From Thiohalomonadales bacterium (GTDB lineage Bacteria; Pseudomonadota; Gammaproteobacteria; RBG-16-57-12): 64,000 nt of DNA. Below, piece after piece: positions 6,182-55,550 of this stretch (within the stretch, counting starts at the first letter, position 1; each line of letters starts with the position of its first letter). The stretch is taken from assembly GCA_050295955.1 (NCBI GenBank), contig JBNKQQ010000076.1:18255-82254 (forward strand), written 5' to 3'. The notes under the pieces are model-generated. The model saw nothing but the letters and a program-made list of their open reading frames with translations. It was not told where the DNA came from and made no database searches. Made by a program: the position numbers and the translations under genes.

Positions 6182-7648
6182 ATGAAGTTTGTGGCTAAAC
6201 CCCTCTATGGTCTTGTCGTTTCTATAGCGATCTCTTCGGTATTTGGCAGCGCTGCCATGGCATCTGATGACCCTCCATCGGGACAACAATCGCTTGAAGA
6301 GGTGATTCCCATTACCATGGCCAATTTGCGAGGCCAGAAGGCGTTGTATGAAGAGGGGTGGTTTGTTATTAGCTCTACTGAGCGTGCCTTTCAATATGCC
6401 CAAGAAAAGTTCATCACCTCCTCCGGGCAGGCGCTGCAGCAGATGCAGGCCTCTCTGGGTGAACGCTCTGAACAATTACCTGATGCCTTGGCTGAAGGGA
6501 TTAATGAAGGGGTTGAATCGGGTAAGTCTTTCTATCAGAAGGGTGGTCAGCGTAGCGATGATATTTACCGGGGCACTCATGAGGTTGCTCAGCAGCAGTT
6601 GAATTATGCCAAGCAGGGTTTTGTGAAAGCGTGGGACCGTTTTGTGTTGGGGAATATTACCCTGGTCAAGCGTACAGAAGAGGATCGCCAAGCGTTGATG
6701 GCGATTCCGGGTGATTACTATCACACCCTCAAATCCGATTTCAGTAATCTCTATCAATTAAGCCAAACTGCCGCGGATGCTATTACGCCAGAGATTGAGC
6801 TCAATTGGTCCGCTTCTCTGCAGCAGGCTCAGGCCAGTTTTGCTGAAGAGTATGAGGCATCGGGTGAGGCCGCCAATTCGTTGAGTGGCCTGGGGGATAT
6901 TCTCGCAGGGTATGCGAAGGCCGCTTATCATGCCATTTTCAAACCCAGTGGGCAGGCTATCGCCAAAGGCGCTACGGCGACGGTGGGTCTGGCGGGACAG
7001 GCACTGTTTCTGCCAACGGCCTCCCTGTTTGTGGTTACCGGACGTACAGTGCAGTCTGCCGGCTTATCCCTCTACTACACCACTAAAACTGGCTACAAGC
7101 TGGTCTCTCCAACGTTAGAGGGCGGTATGCTTGGCGGTGTCTCTTTATTGGCGGGGGCAACAGCACCTGTTACCTATGGCGCTGGCATGTCGGCAGGGAT
7201 GTTAAATCAGGTGGCTGTGACCACTTTATCGCCGGTAGTGGGTGGGGCAACGGCTGTTGGGAGTACCTTGGCAGAGACGGCTGAGTATGCCGGTTTGGTG
7301 ACCTATGATCTTGCCAAGGGGGGCAGCAAGGTTGTGATTAACCAAATCTCCAGTGGCGTTGTCTTGGGTTATAACGCCTTGACAGCACTGCCTACCCAAG
7401 CATTGTTGAGTACGGCGAATGGGGCCTTTTTTCTGGTTTACGATGGCCCCAGGTTGATGGTTGCCAAGGTGAGTGGTCGCTTGTCGGATGAGGGTGAGGC
7501 ACAGACTATCGATAGCCTGCCCGTCGGTACCGTGGTGGATATGAAGCAGTTGGAGCAAGTACCTGAGTTGATGATTGAGCCTGTTTCCGATGATCCCGCG
7601 CTGATTGAACAGGTACTGGAAAACATGGCAGAGGATCTTCGCCAATGA
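6182..7648 (+). CDS. Secreted hypothetical protein. The C-terminal half is Gly/Ala-rich (glycine-zipper-like), followed by a conserved tail domain.
   Basis: Signal peptide MKFVAKPLYGLVVSIAISSVFGSAAMA. Its central segments (GGATAVGS, GAGMSAGM) and C-terminal domain are paralogous to the next gene. Confidence 0.55.
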   Translation: MKFVAKPLYGLVVSIAISSVFGSAAMASDDPPSGQQSLEEVIPITMANLRGQKALYEEGWFVISSTERAFQYAQEKFITSSGQALQQMQASLGERSEQLPDALAEGINEGVESGKSFYQKGGQRSDDIYRGTHEVAQQQLNYAKQGFVKAWDRFVLGNITLVKRTEEDRQALMAIPGDYYHTLKSDFSNLYQLSQTAADAITPEIELNWSASLQQAQASFAEEYEASGEAANSLSGLGDILAGYAKAAYHAIFKPSGQAIAKGATATVGLAGQALFLPTASLFVVTGRTVQSAGLSLYYTTKTGYKLVSPTLEGGMLGGVSLLAGATAPVTYGAGMSAGMLNQVAVTTLSPVVGGATAVGSTLAETAEYAGLVTYDLAKGGSKVVINQISSGVVLGYNALTALPTQALLSTANGAFFLVYDGPRLMVAKVSGRLSDEGEAQTIDSLPVGTVVDMKQLEQVPELMIEPVSDDPALIEQVLENMAEDLRQ

Positions 7649-9480
7649 GAAAGCCGATTACGATTTTGCTTGTTGCAACTGGCCTTGTTCTGCAATTGAG
7701 TGCTTGTTCTAATGCGCCTAAGCAAGAGGATCCCTTAAAGAATACTAAGCAGCTGGTCAAACGTGGCCACGGTGATCTCTATGACAATGGCGCATTCCAG
7801 GTTCCCAATACCAAGATCTCACTGATACCTCCAGGCCCATCGGCCATGGAGTTCGCTAAAGAGCTGGCAGGTGTCCGTGCCCGTCAATCCTTTGAACAGT
7901 CCCTGGAAAATGCCCGTGATGCAGTCTATGTGGTAGCAGATGGGACCCGTAAAAGTTTTACCCTGGCATCCGAGCTACATGACGATACCAATGAGGTGGC
8001 AAATTACATTACAGCGCATTCACGGCCAAATAGTAAGTTATTAATATACAAAGCTTATCCCAAAACCAAAGAGATTATTGGCGAGAGTTGGCAGCTGGCT
8101 GACCGGGTTGCACATCGCATGGAGGAGGGGGCGAGCGGAATGATTGCAGGGGCTGCGGCAGCAGGAGAAGGAATGCGTGAAGCGGCCAAAGCCACTGAAG
8201 GGACATTGGGTAAGTCGTGGGAATTGGCTAAATCATTCTCCAGTGATACCAATGCGTTGGTCGGAGAGGGTTTTGCGACGGCCGGCGAGGCCTTTGTGCA
8301 AGGTTACGCAGCACTGCCCCGACGCCTATCCGAGCGCTGGGGAGCACAGAGTCAAAGTCCCACACTGGATAAATTTGCGGCCAATTATGAGGCTTCACTC
8401 GCCTATCGGGAATCTCGCTCCGAGTTTTATGGCGAGATGGTGAGCGCCTCCTTGAGTGATTATAGCGATGGGGTTTCCGACTCCTTTGCCAATGCGGCGG
8501 CGGCCTTTGATCAAGCGGGTGAAACCGGCTTCAGTCTTGCTACCTTGAAGGCGGCAAGGTGGGTGCTGCAGGGTATCTTTTGGGATGGTTTGATCAAGCC
8601 GGTGGGTGGTGCCACGGTTGGCTCGGTAGGCTATCTCACCGTTAATACAGTCACCTTCCCAGTGATGCTGGTAGCCAGTGAGAGTGTGCCGGTGGCTGAA
8701 GTGGCTGTTGAAGTGGCTTGGAACTCTGCGGCGACAGCCTATGAGGTGGTGGCGCCGACGGCTTCTGCTGCCGTGGCTTCATTGTTTAGTCTTACAGGGA
8801 TGGCCATTGGCCAAACAGCAGCGGGTGGCGCCATTGCGGGTGGTGCTATCGCAGAAGGGAGCGGCTATCTGGTGAAAGGTGCCGCGACGGTGGTTGAGAC
8901 AGGAGGCAAAGTAGCTGGCAAGAGTGTCAGTTACATTGGCGTCCCTCTTACCACAGCCGGCATCAAGATCGCCGGTAGTGCAGCGGGTGTTGTGGTGGGC
9001 GGTGCTCAGGCAGGTGCTGGCGGGGCACTGTTTATTGCCGGAGAGGGCGGGGCGCTTGCTACTCAGGCGGCAGGTAATCTCGCTGCGGGCACTACCTTGG
9101 CTGTCGGTACCGTAGCCTCGACTGTAGCCGGTGCTGGGCTGGGCGTTTATGAACTCTCCAAAGCCGTGGTAGTCCCGACCGGTTACACCTTGGGGAGTGG
9201 CATTGTGCTGGGCTACGGCACCACCTCTCAGTTGGCTGCTCACTCCATCCTAGCGGTTAGCGATGCTGCTTATTTGGTGCTCTCACTTGAAGGTCCTCGA
9301 TGGGTGGTTTATGCGGTCAAAGGTGACCTGAATAAGGGTGATGATTTGGCTGTAGGCACTATGCTGGATCTAGAGCAGATGCAGACGTCAGGTGAGACCT
9401 TCTATGAATTGCCGGTCTCTGATGAGGAGCTAAGCGGGCTACTCGAAGCATTGCCGGAAGAGCTGCCAGAAGCACCTTAA
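7645..9480 (+). CDS. Lipoprotein paralogue of the upstream gene; Gly/Ala-rich, with an acidic C-terminal tail.
   Basis: Lipobox LQLSAC at residues 16-21. The start overlaps the upstream stop (ATGA). A long G/A-rich glycine-zipper-like tract (AGGAIAGGAIAEGSG...GGAQAGAGGALFIAGEGG) sits before a C-terminal domain alignable to that of the 6182-7648 protein. Confidence 0.55.
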   Translation: MRKPITILLVATGLVLQLSACSNAPKQEDPLKNTKQLVKRGHGDLYDNGAFQVPNTKISLIPPGPSAMEFAKELAGVRARQSFEQSLENARDAVYVVADGTRKSFTLASELHDDTNEVANYITAHSRPNSKLLIYKAYPKTKEIIGESWQLADRVAHRMEEGASGMIAGAAAAGEGMREAAKATEGTLGKSWELAKSFSSDTNALVGEGFATAGEAFVQGYAALPRRLSERWGAQSQSPTLDKFAANYEASLAYRESRSEFYGEMVSASLSDYSDGVSDSFANAAAAFDQAGETGFSLATLKAARWVLQGIFWDGLIKPVGGATVGSVGYLTVNTVTFPVMLVASESVPVAEVAVEVAWNSAATAYEVVAPTASAAVASLFSLTGMAIGQTAAGGAIAGGAIAEGSGYLVKGAATVVETGGKVAGKSVSYIGVPLTTAGIKIAGSAAGVVVGGAQAGAGGALFIAGEGGALATQAAGNLAAGTTLAVGTVASTVAGAGLGVYELSKAVVVPTGYTLGSGIVLGYGTTSQLAAHSILAVSDAAYLVLSLEGPRWVVYAVKGDLNKGDDLAVGTMLDLEQMQTSGETFYELPVSDEELSGLLEALPEELPEAP

Positions 9481-18669: not shown

Positions 18670-19758
<1,089 letters not shown>

Positions 19759-19771
19759 TTAAGCGGAGCGG

Positions 19772-21310
19772 CTAACGTTTTTTAGCCGCTTTTTTCTTGG
19801 TAGTTGCCCGCTTTTTAGTCGCGGATTTTTTTGCGGAGGCTTTCTTTTTCACGGAAGCCTTCTTTTTACTTGCCGCTTTCTTTCTGGTCGCACTCTTATT
19901 TTTAATGGCAGACTTTTTAATATAGGCCTTCTTCTTAGTTGCGGCTTTTTTCTTGGTCACCGCTTTCTTAGTCGCCGACTTCTTCTTAGTGGCGGCTTTT
20001 TTCTTGGTCACCGCTTTCTTCGTTGCCGACTTTTTCTTAGTGGCGGCCTTTTTCTTGGTCACCGCTTTCTTCGTTGCCGACTTTTTCTTAGTGGCGGCCT
20101 TTTTCTTGGTCACCGCTTTCTTAGTCGCGGACTTCTTCTTAGTGGCGGCTTTTTTCTTGGTCACCGCTTTCTTAGTCGCGGACTTCTTTTTAGTGGCGGC
20201 TTTTTTCTTGGTCACCGCTTTCTTAGTCGCGGACTTCTTTTTAGTGGCGGCTTTTTTCTTGGTCACCGCTTTCTTAGTCGCGGACTTCTTCTTAGTGGCG
20301 GCTTTTTTCTTGGTCACCGCTTTCTTAGTCGCGGACTTCTTTTTAGTGGCGGCTTTTTTCTTGGTCACCGTTTTCTTCGTTGCCGACTTCTTCTTAGTGG
20401 CGGCTTTTTTCTTGGTTGCCGCTTTCTTCGTTGCCGACTTCTTCTTAGTGGCCGCCTTTTTCTTAGTTGCCGCTTTCTTAGTCACGGACTTCTTCTTAGT
20501 GGCGGCTTTCTTTTTAGTCGCCGCTTTTTTCTTAACGGCGCGCTTCTCGACAGGCTCTTCCTCAGTAACCGTTTCTTCAACCTGCGCTGCAGGTTCCTCA
20601 GTCGTTGTTTCTGACTCTAGAGGTAGAGGCAGGGATTGAGGCTCATTTTCTGGCTCTTCTTTTCCCAGGGAGTCAATGACATGACAAACACGGTTGAAGA
20701 TATCTTCAATCTCACCAATACCTTCGATGCGTTGCAGAATTGCTTTGTCACTGTAGTAGTTAATTAGTGGGCTGGTTTGCTCTTCGTATACCTTAAGGCG
20801 GCTGCCGATGGTCTCTTCGTTGTCATCAGAGCGGTGTTGCAGTTCTCCACCACACTTATCACAAACACCCTCTTTCTCTGTGGGGGAGAAGAAGACATTG
20901 TAAACTTGGCCGCATGCCTTACAGGTACGGCGGCCGGTAATACGTTTGAGCAGTACATCAAAATCGACGTTAATCAGGATTGCACCATCAAGTGGTTGAC
21001 CAACCTTGCTTAGCAGTTGGTCTAGTGCTTCTGCCTGAGGAATATTGCGGGGGAAACCATCCAGAATATAGCCATTGTGGGTATCAGGTTGTGCGAGACG
21101 TTCCTCGATCATGCCTAGCACCACCGAGTCAGGAACCAGCTGTCCGGCATCCATGAACTCTTTGGCTTGTTTTCCGAGTTCGGTGCCGCTGGATACGGCA
21201 GCACGGAGTAGGTCGCCAGTGGAGATTTGCGGAATATTGTATTTATCGATTAGTTTCTGAGCTTGGGTACCTTTACCTGAACCCGGCGCACCTAACAGTA
21301 CGATTCTCAT
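19772..21310 (-). CDS. adk: Adenylate kinase with a Cys4 zinc LID, fused in frame to an acidic linker and a long Lys/Ala/Thr-rich histone-H1/AlgP-like repeat tail.
   Basis: [17 protein letters not shown]-loop and CKACG...CDKCGG zinc LID. I chose the start at ATG 21310, which has a GGGAGG SD 10 nt upstream. After about 222 aa of Adk there is no stop. Instead come about 40 acidic residues ([24 protein letters not shown]), then roughly a dozen repeats of [17 protein letters not shown]. Confidence 0.85.
19790..20545. repeat. 51-bp tandem-repeat array inside the adk 3' region, encoding the 17-aa K/A/T repeats.
   Basis: Near-identical units of ...TTAGTCGCGGACTTCTTTTTAGTGGCGGCTTTTTTCTTGGTCACCGCTTTC... 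repeat head to tail across about 600 bp. Copies at both edges are degenerate. Confidence 0.85.
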
Positions 21311-21454
21311 AGCGCAGTTGCCTCCCTCGGCAATATTTATCATTTTGATTATAGGAAATGTAGCGGTTAGCTATTTGAACCCCAGATTATGTCAATGAGC
21401 ACTGGTAAATTACAAGTTTTGATGGGATTAATTGAGGAAAAAAGTGCTTTTTAA

Positions 21455-21476
21455 AGAGAAAGGGCTCTTTTCAGAG
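21455..21476 (-). terminator. Hairpin terminator downstream of hpf.
   Basis: GGGCTCT-TTTC-AGAGCCC stem-loop, with a T-rich run on the minus strand. Confidence 0.5.
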
Positions 21477-21506
21477 CCCAATTGATGTTGATATGACCAA
21501 TGTTAT

Positions 21507-33730: not shown

Positions 33731-35986
33731 ATGAGTTCAACCATCTCTTACTCCTCGGATACCCACGGCGCTGAGCTACTGTTTGGCCCCTCTCATCGGC
33801 TGCATTCTATCGTAAAGTTTCTTCTCGCCAGTATTGTCGCAATGGCATTGCTGCTGATGCTGGTCTACGTGGCGGATCGCCAGTATGAACTTTCCCAGTG
33901 GCAGAAGGAGGAGCGCAGTCATGTGGCTTATGCCGCAGGGCTGTTAGATGAGTTTGCGGTGATGCCTGTTAGTGACATTCTGGCATTGGCCGAGGAGTCT
34001 TATCCGCCAACCGCGGGCAGCGAATCGATAACGCGACGTTTCCAAAACCAGTTACTACATAAGCCTAATTATTATCAGCTACGCTATATTGACCTTGAGG
34101 GTCTAGAGCAGGTGCGGGTGCAGTACCGCGGAGATCAAGTGGTCGAGGTCCCAACTGCACAGTTACAGGATAAGCTGCATCGGGATTACTTCCAGAAAGC
34201 GATATCACTTTCACGGGGACAAGTTTACCTTTCGCCATTGGAGTTGAATATTGAGCACGGTGAGGTGGAGCAGCCGATCCAGCCAGTATTTCGGGTGGCA
34301 ACCCCGGTCTTTGATGATAGGGGGGAAAAAAGCGGTATCATTATTATCAACTTGTTTGGTTCGCAGCTACTGGCACCGTTTGCTGAGTTGGATAGAAGCT
34401 CTCAACAGACGATGAGTTTACTAAATCAACAAGGCTACTGGCTCTATAGCAGTGATCCCTCTCTGCCATGGGGAAGGCAGTTGGGGAGTAATCTGGGGTT
34501 TGCCGAATTCCATCCTGAGTGGCTGCAGATTCAAGGGCAATCGGAAGGGCAGTTGGTATTGGCAGAGGGGCTACTGACCTTTCGGCGCATTGATAAGCCG
34601 GGGCGTCACCTGATTAATGAGAGTGCCAAGATGGAGGAGATGTTTTTTGATGACCTACATTGGTATGTACTCTCCCGCGTTGATAACAGGTTGATCTATC
34701 GGGATGCCAATCATCGTCTTGAATTGATGTTGATCGGCATGCTGCTGATGATTCTGCTGCTGATTCCCGTCTCCTATTTCTGGTCCCGTCACTATATCCG
34801 CTATCGCTATCATAATTTGCTTAATCGTATCTTCTTTACTCTGGCAGAGCAGAGCTCGGATATCATCTATGTGACGGATCGAAGGGGTGTGATTCTGTTT
34901 GCCAATAATGCGGCGGCAGAGAATAGCGGCTACACCTGTGATGAATTGATAGGCCAGCACTCCAATATTTTTAAATCTGGGAGACATAGTGAAGCGTTTT
35001 ATCAGCAGTTATGGCATAACCTGCAAGAGGGTAAGGAGTTTACCGAGATCTTTATCAATTGCCGTAAGGATGGCTCGCTCTATACCGAGCTGAAGACAAT
35101 CCATCCTGCGGTGGATAAGGAGAATGATTTTATCTTTTACATCTCTTCCGGCAAGAATATGACTCGCCTCTACAAGCAGGATCAGCGCTATCTAGAGTTG
35201 ATGGATCAGGCGGTTATTGGCACCTCGTTGCGCTTCGAGCGATTATTGTTATTAATTACCGACTACGCACTATTGGCGAAAGATAGTCTGGAGCAGGGGT
35301 CGTTAGACTTGGCCAGAAAGTTTATCGATGACATTAACAGCAGTACTGATAAAGCCAAGCAGCTGTTTAATGAGTTTGCCTATATTCGTGAACAGCAGAG
35401 CGAGCACCATTTTTTGATGCCGCTCTCACAGTTAATGGATCAGGCGCTGGAGGTTGCACAGCAGCATTATCCTCGGCATAACTTTGAGAAGCGCATGCTA
35501 GCGAATTTTCCTGATGCCCTCTGCTATCGTGACTCGATGAGTGTGGCATTGCAGGCCTTGTTGAAGCAGGTGGTAGAGATGACGCCCAATCATCGGCTGG
35601 TGACTTTGTGTGGCTACGCACTACAAGTGTCGGATCAAGTGTGTCCTTTGTGTGGTGAGTTGATTGACGAGGGGATGGCTGCGGTTGCGATTCGTTGCCA
35701 AGGTGAGGCGTTGGAGCAGCAAGTCCTCTCTCGGCTGTTTGAGCCCTTTTACGGCGTAGACTTGCAAACCCATGTGGATAAGGTCTATTCAGAGATTAAT
35801 TTGAGTATTGTGCGTAATATTGTGCATGCTCACTCTGGTCATATCACCATCAATAGCAATGCAGTTGGTGAGATTGAGATCATTCTCTATTTGCCGACAC
35901 GGGAGCAGGCACAGAAGCAGCGACTCAGCAGTCGTGAGGTGGATCGTTCAATACGGGCTTATCGGCAGGAACTCGAACAGAAGTGA
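33731..35986 (+). CDS. Membrane sensor protein with a periplasmic domain, a PAS domain and a degenerate histidine-kinase-like C-terminal domain.
   Basis: Two transmembrane segments bracket a periplasmic domain of about 280 aa. The PAS region is SDIIYVTDRRGVILFANNAAAENSGYTCDELIGQ. The C-terminus is HATPase-like. I see neither an H-box (HExxxP) nor a G2 box (GxGLGL). Confidence 0.55.
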   Translation: MSSTISYSSDTHGAELLFGPSHRLHSIVKFLLASIVAMALLLMLVYVADRQYELSQWQKEERSHVAYAAGLLDEFAVMPVSDILALAEESYPPTAGSESITRRFQNQLLHKPNYYQLRYIDLEGLEQVRVQYRGDQVVEVPTAQLQDKLHRDYFQKAISLSRGQVYLSPLELNIEHGEVEQPIQPVFRVATPVFDDRGEKSGIIIINLFGSQLLAPFAELDRSSQQTMSLLNQQGYWLYSSDPSLPWGRQLGSNLGFAEFHPEWLQIQGQSEGQLVLAEGLLTFRRIDKPGRHLINESAKMEEMFFDDLHWYVLSRVDNRLIYRDANHRLELMLIGMLLMILLLIPVSYFWSRHYIRYRYHNLLNRIFFTLAEQSSDIIYVTDRRGVILFANNAAAENSGYTCDELIGQHSNIFKSGRHSEAFYQQLWHNLQEGKEFTEIFINCRKDGSLYTELKTIHPAVDKENDFIFYISSGKNMTRLYKQDQRYLELMDQAVIGTSLRFERLLLLITDYALLAKDSLEQGSLDLARKFIDDINSSTDKAKQLFNEFAYIREQQSEHHFLMPLSQLMDQALEVAQQHYPRHNFEKRMLANFPDALCYRDSMSVALQALLKQVVEMTPNHRLVTLCGYALQVSDQVCPLCGELIDEGMAAVAIRCQGEALEQQVLSRLFEPFYGVDLQTHVDKVYSEINLSIVRNIVHAHSGHITINSNAVGEIEIILYLPTREQAQKQRLSSREVDRSIRAYRQELEQK

Positions 35987-35993
35987 CAACCGT

Positions 35994-37871
35994 TTAGGCC
36001 TCACCCAAGCAGAAGCGGGTTATGAGTTCATCTGCTGGGATGGCTTGAGAGAAGAGATATCCTTGAAAGAGGTCACAGCCATGCTGTTTGAGCAGTTCGA
36101 ATTGCTGTTGAGTTTCTACACCCTCGGCAACGATGGTGAGACCTAACTGCTTACCCATGGCAATGATAGTACGAGTGATGGCATCACTGTCCTCATCCAG
36201 AGCAATATCAGAGACGAATTGTCGGTCAATTTTTAGTTCATCAATGGGCAGCTTCTTCAAATAGGCCAGGGAGGAGTAGCCCGTGCCAAAATCATCAATG
36301 GAGAAGCGGATACCGAAATCTTTTAGCTGCTTCATATTGGTAATGGCGGCATCCATGTTTTTCATCAAGCTGTTTTCTGTCACCTCAAAAGTGATACTAC
36401 CTGGCTGATACTGCATCTCTTTCAGAATTCCCAAGGTTTGATGGACAAAGCCCATATTGGTGAGAAGCAGGGGGCTGAGATTGATAGAGATAGCTAGTTC
36501 GCCATTTTTCCAGCGGCTCTGTTGTTGGCACGCATCACGAAGGGTGCGCTGCCAGACGGTATTGATAAGCTTCAGCTCTTCCAAAACAGGAATAAACAGG
36601 GCAGGGCCATTGCCATTGTGTCTGGGATTCTCCCAGCGTAGTAACGCCTCTGCGGCAACCACTTGCAGTGTATTGTCGACTTGTACTTGGTAGTGGCTGG
36701 CAAACTCTTTGTTACTGACGGCATTACGGACGTTACGCTCCAGCGCTAATTGATTTTTCGCCTGTTGCTGCATGGCTTCCTGATAGAAACAGCAGCAATT
36801 TTTCCCCGAGGATTTGGCAGCATACATGGCGGAGTCTGCCTGATGTAAAATCTCATCAATGGTGGCGCTGCCACCTTGAAAAAGTGTGATGCCGATACTG
36901 CAGGAGGAGCGCTCTGCATAATCGTTGAGCATATAAGGATGAGCTAACTGCTGACGGATTTTCTTGGCAATATGCTCTACTCTGGGGGCGGCAACAGATT
37001 CGTTGAAGCCCATATCACTGAGTAATACCACGAATTCATCACCACCAAGGCGGGCCACCATATCGACTTCTCGTACCGAGCCCTTTAGCCGTTTAGCCAC
37101 CTCTTTGAGGAGTTGATCGCCTGCATGGTGACCAAGGGAGTCGTTGATGGTTTTAAACCGGTCCAGGTCGAGAAACAGCATGGCAAGCATTTGTCTTGAG
37201 CGTCGGGATTGAGCGAGCATTAACGTCAGTCGCTCATAGAGCATACGACGGTTAGCTAGCCCGGTCAGTTGATCATAGAATGCGAGGTGGGTAATCTGTT
37301 CTTCAATCTCCTTTTGACGACTGATGTTGACGATACTGACGAGTAATAAATCGTGCTCATCGTCAAATTGATACTTTTTGATATTCAGGGTGTTAGCTTG
37401 AATTCTTCTACCTTGTATCAGTCCATGAGCCGTCTCTCCACTGAGGGTTTTCAAGCTGAATTCAAAATATTTTTCGCTGGGTTTTTTGAAAAAGCTGTTG
37501 AAACGAGCTCGTAGGTGTTTTTGGTCCTCTTCACTGAGAAAGGCGATAAAGGGTCGATTTTCAATGTTGTAGAGTTTAATGCCGACGGTGTTAGCAAAGG
37601 TTTGGTTGGCTTCGATGATGGTACCATCCTGGTTTAATACCACATAGCCAACAGGTGATTCATGGTAGAATTGGGTAAAGTTATCTTTCACTTTAGCCAG
37701 CTCTGTTTCGGTGTTTCTCAGGGTTTTTCGCAGTCGCGTTAACTGATCATTGGTTAATGCGAGCGCTTTGCTCTCTTTGCTTTCGCTTTGTGAGTCGGTC
37801 AGTGACGGTTGATCTTCCTGTTGAGATGGGTATCGGCTGGCCATACTCTTGCTATCCATATGTGATGTCAC
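35994..37871 (-). CDS. PAS-GGDEF-EAL protein (diguanylate cyclase/phosphodiesterase).
   Basis: It carries RLGGDEFVV, plus EAL (EALLRWENP), EVTENS and DDFGTGYSSL motifs. Confidence 0.85.
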   Translation of the reverse strand: MTSHMDSKSMASRYPSQQEDQPSLTDSQSESKESKALALTNDQLTRLRKTLRNTETELAKVKDNFTQFYHESPVGYVVLNQDGTIIEANQTFANTVGIKLYNIENRPFIAFLSEEDQKHLRARFNSFFKKPSEKYFEFSLKTLSGETAHGLIQGRRIQANTLNIKKYQFDDEHDLLLVSIVNISRQKEIEEQITHLAFYDQLTGLANRRMLYERLTLMLAQSRRSRQMLAMLFLDLDRFKTINDSLGHHAGDQLLKEVAKRLKGSVREVDMVARLGGDEFVVLLSDMGFNESVAAPRVEHIAKKIRQQLAHPYMLNDYAERSSCSIGITLFQGGSATIDEILHQADSAMYAAKSSGKNCCCFYQEAMQQQAKNQLALERNVRNAVSNKEFASHYQVQVDNTLQVVAAEALLRWENPRHNGNGPALFIPVLEELKLINTVWQRTLRDACQQQSRWKNGELAISINLSPLLLTNMGFVHQTLGILKEMQYQPGSITFEVTENSLMKNMDAAITNMKQLKDFGIRFSIDDFGTGYSSLAYLKKLPIDELKIDRQFVSDIALDEDSDAITRTIIAMGKQLGLTIVAEGVETQQQFELLKQHGCDLFQGYLFSQAIPADELITRFCLGEA

Positions 37872-37899: not shown

Positions 37900-40773
37900 T
37901 CAAGCGCAGGGCTCCGGTTGCAACTGCACTAACATGCCTAAGTGGGTTTGATGGGCGAATTCCATCCGCGAGAGTTTGCCGCGGTAACGCCCCGTTTCCA
38001 AAGTGAGCTGACTGTGATAGTTGTCTGTATCGCTGTGTATATTGAGGTAGTTATCGCCTTGTTGTAGATAATCCTGAATAGCTGTTGGCAGGACCTCATC
38101 TCCCTTCTGTCGTAGTAGTTGATGGCGGCCTCGGCCAATGAGAGATTCAAATTGTGGATTACAAAGCTGTAGGTAACCTTGCTGATCAATGAAGAAGGCA
38201 GGTATTTCTAGTGCATCAAGAATTCCCTGAGCAAAGGCACTTTTTTCGCTGGCAGTTTGCTCCGCCTGTTTTATCCGTGTTACTTCGACAGTGGTTAACA
38301 CAATACCGGCAAACTGGCTTTCGGAGATGCGGTAGGGGAGGCCCCGCAAAATAAACCAGCGGTTGTCATAGCTGAACTCCCGTTCGATGGTATGGGTGCC
38401 ACGGTTGACTTCGTCGAGAAACTGGCGAATATCCAGGTCTTTGATGTTATGGGAGAGGTGAAAAATAGAACGACCAATATCACTATCTATAATATTGAAC
38501 AATTCGGCTACCCGCGACGAAAATCGGCGGATTTCCATGTCTTCATCCAGAAATAGGGTGCCGATCTCGGTATTATCCAGCAAGTTATCTAGATCGTTAG
38601 TGGTTTCAGTCAGCTCCATAATTTTGCTCTGGTATTCGGCATTAACGGTGTAGAGCTCCTCATTGACCGATTGCAGCTCCTCATTGGTACTTTGCAGCTC
38701 TTCGTTACTGGAGAGCAACTCCTCATTGGTCGCCTGTAGCTCCTCATTAGAGGTCTCTAGCTCCTCGACAGTTGCCTGTAGGCTTTCACGGTTAAATTGC
38801 AGCTCCTGCTCCAGATCGGCGATACGAGTCTCCGCCTCCTTGGTTAAATTATAGACTGAATCTACATTGTCGTGATGAGCCTCTTGCTGACTGGAGACCA
38901 GGAACGCGGCTACTAGCGGTACCTGCCCCCGTTCTTGATCCATGCGGCGAATGAAGAGGCGGTACTCACAATAGCGGCCATCCAGTTTTTGCAGGTGAAT
39001 CTGATTGAAGGCGATGGATTTTCCAGTATTTAGGCACTTTTTGATGCTGGTGGTAACCGGCAGCGCTAGTTCTTTGATGAGGAGTTTACCAATATCAGCA
39101 CTGATCATGCCGTTGGGTAGGCTTATAAAATCACGAGTATTGCCCACGGAGTGGAGTAGTTCCAATTCACTATTGATAACAATGGCGAACTCAAAAAACT
39201 CTTTACCGATAAGATTTAATAGCCGTTCTTGTAACCGTTCCTGATTATAGAGCTTTTTATGGGCACTCATTGATGCAATAGCACTTTCATGTCCCTGGCT
39301 TTGCTCCCGCTCAGTATGTTGTAGGCTGAGGCTGGAGATCAGGCGACGATTCCCCAGAGAGCGGAAGATATTCCACTTCATGTGTACCGGCTTGAAGGAG
39401 TCCTGCATGTCGCCAGTGCTTTCGCTGGCGCCCAACAACATCAGACCATGGTTGGAGAGAGCAAAGTTGAAATACTCCAGTGCTTTACGTTGCAATATGG
39501 GCTGGAAGTAGATGAGCAAATTGCGACAGGAGATGAAGTTGAGATTGGTGAATGGGGGATCTTTTACCACGTTGTGTTTGGCAAATACTACCTTTTCCCG
39601 CAGTGCGCGGCTGACGATGTAGGTGTCGTCACGGTGCATAAAGTACTTGTTCAGGTAGCGGTTGGGAATATCGGCGGCAACACTCTCCGGGTAACGGCCG
39701 ATACTGGCGAAGTCTAGGGCAGCTTCATCTACATCTGTCGCAAATACCTTAACTCCAAGGGGGAGGCCCAGGGTGTCAATATTCTCCATGAACAGCATAG
39801 CCAAGGTATAGGCCTCTTCACCGGTGGAGCAGCCAGCGACCCAGATACGCACCTCACTCTGCTGTGTAGGGAGTTCAGTGAGAAATTCAGGTAGTACGGA
39901 ATTTTCCAGAGTCTCAAATACCTCGGAATCTCGGAAGAAGTTGGTGACGCCGATCAGTAATTCTTTATAGAGCATGCGCAGCTCTTCAGGGTTGGCGGCC
40001 AAATAGTCAGCATACTCCTGATGGGTTGGGATTTGGGTAACGGACATTCGTCGCTCGATTCTACGCAGCACGGTAGAGGGCTTGTAGAAGGTAAAGTCAT
40101 GTTTGAAGCGATTTCGTAGCAGTGAGAAGATGGCTTTGATATGGTCGACACTGTCGATTTCCAGCTCACCACTTTTTAGGGCGGGGGGAAGAGGTTCTGA
40201 CTGGTGATTGGCATAGGCTACCAGGCGTTCTGCGATCTCTTCGGGTGAGAGGATGTAATCCGCTAAGCCGGTAGTGATGACACTGCGCGGCATGCCATCA
40301 AATTTTGCGGACTGCTCATTTTGAGCGATGACTATGCCTCCCATCTCTTTGATGCGGCGCACCCCACGGGTACCATCGGTACCGGTTCCAGAGAGTACGA
40401 TAGCAACGGCTTTTTCCTTTTGGTCATCCGCCAGGGATTGGAATAGCAAATCCACCGGCAAATTCAAGGTATGCTTAGGCGGCTTATCTTGCAGACAGAG
40501 TCGGCCTTCCCGGATAGTGATATTTTTGGTAGGTGGTGCGAGGTAGATATGGTCCGGTTTTAGTCCCATCCCCTGACTGACTTCTTCGACCGCCAATATG
40601 GTGCGCTTGGCGAGTAGCTCCGGCATAAGGCTTTTATGGTCAGGAGAGAGGTGCTGTACCACGATAAAGGCGAGGCCACTGTTACGGGGAAAGTTCTCAA
40701 AAAGCGCTGTGATGGCTTCCAAGCCGCCGGCAGACGCACCGACACCGATGTAGTATTTAACGTCGTTATTCAC
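37900..40773 (-). CDS. CheB methylesterase-CheR methyltransferase fusion protein with a coiled-coil and PAS domains.
   Basis: N-terminal CheB catalytic domain ([10 protein letters not shown]). CheR SAM domain ([17 protein letters not shown]). Heptad coiled coil ([33 protein letters not shown]). C-terminal PAS repeats. Confidence 0.85.
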
Positions 40774-55304: not shown

Positions 55305-55550
55305 CAGAGGTATTTAAGAGGCGCTCCCGCTTATGCCGTAGCAGTCTTCGACCTTGAACCATAGGTTCAAGTGGAGATCTTGACCGGCAAATTAGGCTTT
55401 CCGGCGCACGGACATGCACACATCACCGGAGGCAGATCCCGGGATTTTAAATTAGGCTCAAGAGTACCCAGAGTGCATACGAACACAGCAGGAGCGCCAA
55501 ACTGGTGTTGAATCGCTGGCAATTGTCAGCCATTCGAATTGTTCTTGTTA
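55305..55550 (-). ncRNA. ssrS: 6S RNA (ssrS). The ends are approximate, to within about 15 nt.
   Basis: The minus-strand sequence parallels E. coli 6S. Its ...TTCAACACCAGTTTGGCGCTCC... corresponds to the E. coli CAUACCACAAGAAUGUGGCGCUCC. Its central GAGCCTAATTTAAAATCC corresponds to GAGAAGCCUUAAAACUG. Its CACTTGAACCTATGGTTCAAGG corresponds to CACCUUGAACCAAGGGUUCAAGG. The 3' GGGAGCGCC is complementary to the 5' GGCGCTCC. It sits between zapA and ygfA, exactly as in enterobacteria. Confidence 0.7.

Follow-up and report, generated by a model that had tools for sequence, protein, structure and literature searches.

What is to be made of an adenylate kinase gene whose reading frame does not end where the enzyme ends? 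The universal enzyme adenylate kinase (Adk) keeps ATP, ADP and AMP in balance, usually as a small, freely diffusing monomer. In a 64,000-nucleotide stretch of DNA from a Thiohalomonadales bacterium (contig JBNKQQ010000076.1, positions 18,255 to 82,254; hereafter the window), one uninterrupted open reading frame (ORF) encodes a 512-residue protein in which an Adk core (residues 1-217) is followed by an acidic linker of 38 residues and a Lys/Ala/Thr-rich tail. The original prediction for this locus held that a complete Adk runs without a stop codon into an acidic linker and a tail resembling histone H1 and AlgP, and that architecture is borne out. By analogy with AlgP, PhaF and H1, we consider it fairly probable that the product is a working Adk with a disordered polycationic tail that would bind polyanions non-specifically and evolve by repeat slippage. 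The tailed form is not unique to the window genome, and the locus is a modest lead whose function we infer by analogy. Tailed Adks apparently constitute a large, database-visible, undescribed group, within which the window protein is probably an unusually regular, highly charged and recently acquired example.

The enzyme core and its extension

Judged by its sequence, the core is a complete, catalytically equipped zinc-lid Adk. Tests for long-form Adk (Pfam PF00406 plus PF05191, NCBIfam NF001380/TIGR01351) were positive for profile, motif, predicted (putative) zinc site and fold alike. The core scores 196.9 bits against PF00406 (ADK; E = 2.6e-58, cutoff 26.8), 58.8 bits against PF05191 (ADK_lid; E = 4.8e-16, cutoff 26.6), 314.7 bits against NF001380 (cutoff 251), covering positions 1-214 of 216, and 258.2 bits against TIGR01351 (cutoff 168). 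It aligns end to end with solved zinc-lid Adks (5g40, 1-216; 1zin, 1-215). The P-loop GxPGxGKGT and the catalytic Arg/Asp set R36, R88, R123, R127, R160, D162, D163 and R171 are invariant in an alignment of 35 sequences, as are the four cysteines of the LID (C130, C133, C150 and C153, in the pattern CxxC...CxxC), which align with the Cys4 lid of 5g3y. AlphaFold2 (AF2) assigns a predicted local distance difference test score (pLDDT) of 90-95 to residues 1-214, including the terminal helix at 201-214. The net charge of the core is -7.

Linker and tail add 295 residues in frame with the enzyme. The tail consists largely of 119 Lys, 61 Ala, 40 Thr and 17 Ser, with zero Pro and zero Met. AF2 predicts disorder for residues 215-448 (pLDDT <50) and a weakly supported helix for residues 450-511. 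Linker plus tail matched zero Pfam families at E<=10, the histone-like family HC2 (PF07382) included; the full protein did not match HC2 at E<=0.01, and the Pfam scan of the protein gave only Adk and AAA-type families, with no Linker_histone winged-helix domain. Like the tails of AlgP and PhaF, this one is a long, disordered, tandem-repeat, Lys/Ala-rich segment C-terminal to a folded module. The tandem KPAA repeats of those proteins are absent from it, the unit being Pro-free and 17 residues long.

No A-run exceeds 7, and Lys codons in the tail are divided between AAA (0.44) and AAG (0.56), in agreement with the 0.50/0.50 of the window. Codon usage in the tail gave no sign of foreign origin relative to 25 window genes, although the repeated unit dominates this usage and makes it no guide to origin. 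Scanning the entire window turned up no further K/R-rich ORF that might have been the donor of the tail. Separate translation of the tail was considered and rejected: linker and tail contain no Met, and the in-frame GTGs are Val codons of the repeat that lack a Shine-Dalgarno context.

The repeat array

Most of the tail is encoded by a tandem array, for which Tandem Repeats Finder (TRF) reports period 51, 11.8 copies, 93% matches, no indels and a score of 962 (19928-20527). The original prediction described about 260 residues of 17-residue repeats in roughly a dozen units. The unit count, twelve, was right; the regular repeats extend over only about 204 residues and give way to a degenerate end of about 49. 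The 51-bp repeats were also said to be almost identical, which is true of the central units 5-8 (0-1 nt differences), whereas across the array units differ by 0-12 of 51 nt and those at the edges are the most diverged. Each 51-bp unit in turn has higher-order structure, being composed of three sub-units (15+18+18 nt). The gradient of divergence, usual for such arrays, suggests that the central units were duplicated or homogenised most recently. Because 51 = 3 x 17, gain or loss of a unit alters the length of the tail and cannot break its frame.

Differences from the unit consensus are synonymous in 28 of 41 cases (68%), compared with 23% expected for random single-base changes, and third codon positions make up 13 of the 19 variable columns (P ~0.002 by our own binomial arithmetic). 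Non-synonymous changes cluster at the array edges. An excess of this size over expectation indicates purifying selection on the reading frame of the array, and it is the strongest in silico evidence for translation of the tail.

A recent expansion or contraction of the array had also been proposed. The young appearance of its centre agrees with this, and an analogy comes from other tailed Adks that are 97-98% identical, fall in the same 90%-identity clusters and differ by clean in-frame internal deletions in the tail, of 52, 97 and 72 residues. The clusters concerned are P0032/P0344/P0343/P0342 and P0016/P0340/P0341. Proteins in one cluster have 439, 387 and 342 residues, and those in another 412 and 340, the difference of 72 being six 12-residue units. 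Core, linker and extreme C-terminus are kept in every length variant. Such variants can reflect strain-level polymorphism or, alternatively, repeat collapse in short-read assemblies; clonal repeat variation is known for algP, according to work cited in a passage of PMC11894788. Tail units in other lineages are 15-36 bp long with 61-95% match, each lineage having its own unit, a pattern consistent with local, independent expansion in each.

Tailed adenylate kinases in the databases

The follow-up had been suggested of searching for Adk orthologs with C-terminal low-complexity extensions, and many were found, contrary to the implied uniqueness of the fusion. The best 120 matches to the full protein were examined; since this query included the tail, the search was biased toward tailed forms, and all 120 are an Adk with a K/A-rich tail, 347-510 residues in total length. 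In a second search, used for relatives because it avoids that bias, the core served as query and the best 120 Adks were listed; 13 of these 120 are tailed, only at <=67% identity.

The basic segments of the 120 tailed Adks are 100-242 residues long with charges of about +42 to +117, and Lys at about 35-50%, accompanied by Ala, Val and Thr, prevails across what is a large and diverse clade. With a C-terminal Lys/Ala-rich segment of 257 residues and charge +123, the window protein falls within the definition used (at least 100 residues, large positive charge), and its tail charge is the highest among the 121 compared. Linker net charge, by a rough cut, ranges from about -16 to +14 and is neutral or basic in most; acidic linkers of -13 to -16 occur in Adks of tubeworm symbionts (P0028, P0109 and P0033). 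The sequences were drawn from assemblies of independent origin (NCBI, JGI, ENA and Logan). A precomputed HC2 match accompanies many of them and, where annotation is given, this reads "adenylate kinase" or "AAA family ATPase". Named hosts, available for a minority of matches, are all sulfur-oxidizing Gammaproteobacteria: Thioalkalivibrio denitrificans, Acidiferrobacter, Ca. Tenderia, Thiohalomonadaceae, Thiotrichales, and endosymbionts of Escarpia and Lamellibrachia. Examples are P0117 from T. denitrificans (446 residues), P0028 from the Escarpia spicata endosymbiont (485) and P0105 from Acidiferrobacter (347).

The window protein resembles these in its zinc-lid core, a linker of a kind that varies, a tail rich in Lys, Ala, Val or Thr (100-242 residues in the others) with a basic end, and its gammaproteobacterial origin. 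It differs in that their units are degenerate, at 15-36 bp, whereas its own 51-bp unit, present 12 times at 93% match, makes a longer and more regular array without Pro. As far as can be told, its tail is not orthologous by descent to the other Adk tails, the 13 nearest relatives having none; similarity between the tail by itself and other Adk tails reaches E values down to 8e-19 and may reflect composition alone. The exact 512-residue protein was absent from an assembly index look-up. A metagenome scan with the end of the core plus the linker returned six loci, matching the core end only, and none of four linker patterns gave a relative. A search of 8 million full texts found no paper on an Adk whose tail is H1-like, lysine-rich or disordered, or on Adk at polyphosphate (polyP) granules.

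One curated model bears on the group. NF010381 (PRK13808) is a 335-position "adenylate kinase" equivalog whose positions 1-327 align with the tailed Adk P0053. The model thus seems to extend into a low-complexity tail, and long tailed Adks would therefore be embedded in curated resources too. None of ten tailed Adks tested reached its cutoff. For the window protein the score is 214.3 bits (cutoff 426), with its best stretch at model positions 1-127, and model and protein represent different Adk lineages.

Several observations concern individual members. A divergent Adk-like lineage with K/A tails (P0245, P0246 and P0238-P0240) carries the label "AAA family ATPase [Thiotrichales bacterium]"; two of its members, P0246 and P0238, fall below every NCBIfam Adk cutoff (155-171 bits, compared with 251). 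P0246 was found on 220 contigs, so its host organism must be abundant, and the lineage is possibly a paralog rather than a housekeeping Adk. The same 217-residue Adk, P0335 (in the cluster of P0129), is labelled both "Candidatus Polarisedimenticolaceae", an Acidobacteriota family, and "Gammaproteobacteria bacterium"; one of the metagenome-assembled genomes behind these labels is probably misclassified or contaminated. Tailed adk genes lie beside pyrophosphate genes in T. denitrificans (L088, 3199-3735) and in the Escarpia endosymbiont (L089, 1-3280), the neighbors being ppa, for inorganic pyrophosphatase, in one genome and genes for a pyrophosphate-dependent phosphofructokinase (PPi-PFK) and an H+-pyrophosphatase in the other.

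Similar tails on other proteins

Searching with linker plus tail gave 155 matches, and 87 of the 120 listed are tailed Adks. Other carriers among those listed are DksA (tail N-terminal), ObgE, methionine aminopeptidase, Nth/HhH-GPD (N-terminal), SucD and S1/NYN-domain proteins; on ObgE, SucD and methionine aminopeptidase the tail is C-terminal. An exhaustive search with the basic tail against 1.84 billion representatives clustered at 50% returned 75 proteins at E<=0.001, including some spurious periodic matches of about 25% identity, and 10 of the 75 have an Adk core. Adk is the largest recognizable class in both tail searches, but its share falls sharply in the second, where it is far from exclusive. 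The tails share composition and no conserved motif beyond it. As judged from these sequence matches, polycationic K/A/T tails are a promiscuous add-on to housekeeping proteins, with Adk a favored carrier. Among gammaproteobacterial DksA proteins, P0276, P0290, P0295, P0300, P0309, P0311 and others bear N-terminal K/A/T/S tails of 150-190 residues much like the Adk tail.

Close relatives and the origin of the tail

The 13 Adks closest to the window protein by core (70-83% identity) all have 215-228 residues and no tail. The tail is therefore lineage-specific and dispensable. Four relatives (L001, the closest, with L081, L084 and L086) share the gene order hpf-adk-hemB-aroE with the window, and in blastn comparisons with them DNA identity is 74-80% on both sides of the tail region; homology ends at window position 20657-20667 and resumes at 19685-19704. 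In L001 the junction reads GGT AAA TAA where the window has GGA AAA GAA, and hemB follows 32 bp after the stop. L081 (3640-3687) and L084 (690-737) have acidic stubs of 11 residues (DAPQASQEDNKEA and DTPQISDALSTEK, each ending at a stop codon), followed by a terminator hairpin. These stubs are faintly like the start of the window linker and may be its seed or what is left of such a linker. Between adk and hemB, L081 and L084 have spacers of 215-245 bp that contain the terminator hairpin only, with no K/A-coding remnants.

In a neighbor-joining (NJ) tree of cores, the window sequence groups with 10 tail-less sequences in 194 of 200 bootstraps, and with two more tail-less sequences in 159 of 200. 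Because it is nested among tail-less Adks, one gain in the window lineage is more parsimonious than two or three losses, and comparison of the sequences makes such a gain likely.

The gene and its surroundings

Coordinates of the gene, its parts and its flanking signals are collected in Table 1. A second in-frame ATG lies upstream, at 21343. The start is nevertheless placed at 21310, because a Shine-Dalgarno element precedes it and is kept in L001, and because all homologs have the N-terminus MRIVLLG. Gene order, shared between the window and the loci of its closest relatives, is bioD, DUF411, methyltransferase, small membrane proteins, hpf, adk, hemB, aroE; within the window, none of ppk, ppk2 and ppx is found near adk.

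Table 1. Features of the tailed adk locus, in window coordinates.
Feature	Coordinates	Strand	Description and evidence
Whole adk-linker-tail coding sequence	19772..21310	minus	512 codons plus TAG stop at 19772-19774; ORF list, sequence, translation
Adk core, codons 1-217	20660..21310	minus	P-loop, Cys4 zinc lid, C-terminal helix; Pfam/NCBIfam above cutoff, PDB alignment, alignment columns, AF2
Acidic Glu/Pro/Thr linker, codons 218-255, 38 residues	20546..20659	minus	14 Glu, no Lys/Arg, net charge -14; predicted disordered
Polycationic Lys/Ala/Thr/Ser tail, codons 256-512, 257 residues	19775..20545	minus	Net charge +123
Tandem array of 12 51-bp (17-codon) units	19922..20533	minus	TRF, unit table, distance matrix
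Degenerate K/A/S-rich C-terminal end, about 49 residues	19775..19921	minus	Ends KKKAAKKR; basic last residues, as in other Adk tails
Window-only segment, about 950 bp (linker, tail, stop, terminator)	19705..20656	minus	Absent from all close relatives by blastn
Shine-Dalgarno element GAGGGAGG	21321..21328	minus	10 nt upstream of ATG 21310; same element in L001
Promoter-like site: TTGTAA, 18-nt spacer, TG-CATAAT	21386..21415	minus	Consensus match only; downstream of hpf terminator hairpin 21462-21479
Intrinsic-terminator-like hairpin AGGGTGATTG-CCAGT-CAATCACCCT, then T-run	19715..19749	minus	Between adk stop and hemB

The listed hemB ORF (18670-19746, minus strand; 358 residues from a GTG at 19746) overlaps the adk terminator hairpin, and its homologs have 324-341 residues. 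Translation of hemB probably begins near 19685 (LRKQTGLGQ...) or at MRRMRR, and the 5' extension is an artifact of ORF listing. A 228-residue ORF on the plus strand at 19953-20639, antisense to the array, was rejected as a gene; it is a mirror artifact of the Lys/Ala repeat opposite.

Elsewhere in the window, a 6S (SsrS) RNA gene at 55320-55497 on the minus strand scores 87 bits against a gathering score of 46.4, and is the sole Rfam family found there. Two adjacent large ORFs on the plus strand (6182-7648 and 7645-9480; 488 and 611 residues) overlap by 4 nt and have no Pfam match at 1e-8. A 957-residue protein at 37900-40773 on the minus strand combines CheB methylesterase, CheR methyltransferase and PAS domains; its gene adjoins those for a GGDEF-EAL protein (35994-37871) and a Cache/PAS sensor kinase (33731-35986).

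Comparison with known tailed proteins

The closest characterized parallels are AlgP and PhaF. In AlgP (AlgR3) of Pseudomonas aeruginosa a folded N-terminal part is likewise followed by a long, disordered, tandem-repeat, Lys/Ala-rich, H1-like C-terminal domain. The AlgP repeat, however, is the Pro-rich four-residue KPAA, in contrast to the Pro-free 17-residue unit of the window protein; its N-terminus is a coiled coil of unknown function and not an enzyme, and there is no acidic linker. The KPAA tail of AlgP binds DNA and is needed for localization to polyP granules and for the spacing of these, and its repeat region is a mutational hot spot (PMC9239181; PMC11894788). In PhaF, a phasin of Pseudomonas, a disordered K/A-rich tail similarly ties a functional N-terminal module to polyanions, although the motif is again KPAA and the module binds polyhydroxyalkanoate (PHA) granules and has no catalytic activity. 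RNA is bound through lysines of the PhaF tail; the ligands of the tail are DNA in P. putida and specific RNAs in P. aeruginosa, and the repeat number varies from 9 to 22 across Pseudomonas species (PMC12818456). In DdbA of Streptomyces and in the gammaproteobacterial tailed DksA, an H1-like polycationic segment is fused to a conserved housekeeping protein; in these proteins the tail sits at the N-terminus, and its partner is a transcription factor where the window protein has a metabolic enzyme. DdbA is described, in a passage of PMC3643593, as a fusion of H1-like and DksA-like domains that acts as a nucleoid-associated protein. The chlamydial proteins Hc1 and Hc2 and the C-terminal domains of eukaryotic H1 share the Lys/Ala-rich, very basic, low-complexity composition and condense DNA; the window tail differs from these in having no HC2 match and no winged-helix globular H1 domain, and in having an enzyme as partner. 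Set beside these proteins, the H1-like polycationic tail is of a familiar sort; the novelty lies in the class of protein that bears it, an enzyme of core metabolism.

Possible function and alternative explanations

The account we favor begins with an ordinary adk gene, in conserved hpf-adk-hemB-aroE synteny, whose frame would have come to run past the usual stop into linker and tail. The tail may have arisen, or re-arisen, by stop loss and in-frame expansion of a Lys-Ala-Thr primitive of 15-18 nt into the 51-bp unit, with the array center duplicated or homogenized last. The tail would then act as an electrostatic anchor, without sequence specificity, to polyanions such as nucleoid DNA, RNA and ribosomes, or polyphosphate, and part of the Adk pool (2 ADP <-> ATP + AMP) would be concentrated on these phases. 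The acidic Glu/Pro linker would serve as a spacer, and frame-safe slippage would make tail length an evolvable quantity. The proposal in the original prediction that the enzyme is tethered to the nucleoid, to polyP or to nucleic acid appears reasonable by analogy with these better-known tails.

Several points weigh against this account. The case for polyanion binding draws on composition and on AlgP and PhaF, whose tails are Pro-rich KPAA where this one is Pro-free. The tail is absent from curated families. It cannot be essential to Adk function, since 13 close relatives do without it. The exact place of the window sequence inside the tail-less clade has 55 of 200 bootstraps, gain as opposed to retention is decided by parsimony on the NJ tree only, and loss of a tail by a single nonsense mutation is mechanistically easy. 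The copy number of the near-identical central units could be mis-assembled, and "recent" expansion is meant only in a relative sense, as the closest relatives are just 74-80% identical in DNA.

Sulfur oxidizers as a guild are known to store polyP. It is conceivable, if unlikely, that the tail docks Adk specifically on polyP granules, where with polyphosphate kinase (PPK) or polyP:AMP phosphotransferase (PAP) it would form a local energy-buffer hub: AMP converted to ADP by PAP/PPK2, then 2 ADP to ATP and AMP by Adk. All named hosts of tailed Adks are sulfur oxidizers, a link that is anecdotal since organism names are available for a minority of tailed Adks only, and in two genomes tailed adk adjoins pyrophosphate genes. 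The H1-like tail of AlgP brings that protein to polyP granules (PMC9239181), and passages of PMC8776046 (its reference 44) and PMC3163519 describe ATP regeneration from polyP and AMP by Adk with PAP, as well as an increase in Adk-dependent PAP activity when PPK1 is overproduced. Yet no ppk, ppk2 or ppx gene occurs near adk in the window, the polyP-granule proteome paper (PMC9239181) does not mention Adk, a +123 tail would bind DNA or RNA as readily as polyP, and close relatives in apparently the same niche have no tail. A different possibility, to which we give somewhat less credence, makes Adk simply the carrier, an abundant, constitutive scaffold for an H1-like nucleoid- or RNA-binding tail whose function (compaction, charge balance, condensates) would be independent of catalysis. 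Like tails do occur at either terminus of many unrelated, abundant housekeeping proteins, DdbA of Streptomyces provides a precedent (a passage of PMC3643593), and an acidic, Pro-rich spacer is to be expected between two parts that function independently; the over-representation of Adk, with 87 of the 120 listed matches in one tail search and 10 of 75 in the other, instead suggests something specific to this enzyme. The boldest extension of the polyP idea we hold to be more doubtful again, namely that tails have been added to Adk repeatedly and independently in chemolithoautotrophic sulfur-oxidizing Gammaproteobacteria for docking on polyP or polyP-nucleoid condensates, in a repeat-tuned ATP-buffering compartment, with the window protein a freshly expanded case.

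We regard as distinctly improbable a near-neutral run-on, in which loss of a stop exposed or seeded a slippery repeat that is tolerated without specific function. The tail-less close relatives, the highly variable tail length, the lack of any motif shared beyond composition and the lack of a Pfam family would all suit it, but the synonymous excess in the array indicates purifying selection on the peptide, composition and length (100-250 residues) are maintained across a large and diverse clade, no frame-disrupted versions were seen, and long A-runs are avoided. The original prediction also raised a charge switch, in which the acidic linker would fold back on the basic tail or on the enzyme and be autoinhibitory. 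The linker, at -14, does stand directly before the basic tail, and those of the tubeworm-symbiont proteins P0028, P0109 and P0033 are acidic too. The idea is not supported, however, because linker acidity is not conserved, most tailed Adks having neutral or basic linkers, and because -14 cannot neutralize +123, of which it could mask about 11%; the Adk core is itself acidic and the sequence suggests no trigger, so that we would put very little weight on a switch. Scarcely credible, finally, is an artifact, whether assembly collapse, a chimera, or an adk gene merged with a separate H1-like gene by sequencing error. An array of 600 bp with four near-identical central units is hard for short-read assembly, the look-up gave no other record of the exact protein, and the linker was not found in a second strain. 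Set against this, linker and tail offer no Met or plausible internal start, the frame stays open over 295 codons and bears visible signs of selection, the same architecture recurs in more than 100 independent assemblies, and copy-number errors of whole 51-bp units would preserve the frame.

Implications

If non-specific anchoring to polyanions is the correct reading, the existence, in one bacterial clade, of more than 100 sequence clusters whose Adk bears a histone-like polycation of 100-300 residues implies that adenylate equilibration may be spatially organized on the nucleoid, on RNA or on polyphosphate. Recent work on H1-type tails, which has dealt with the structural proteins AlgP and PhaF, would thereby be carried over to an enzyme of core metabolism. 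Were the more speculative polyP compartment to prove true, it would be one that takes polyP, AMP and ADP to ATP with a capacity tuned by repeat number. Close relatives without the tail provide a natural comparison of Adk with and without it, and the young, regular array is convenient for testing the effect of repeat number. There is a lesson for annotation as well, in that the tailed proteins have all been labelled simply "adenylate kinase".

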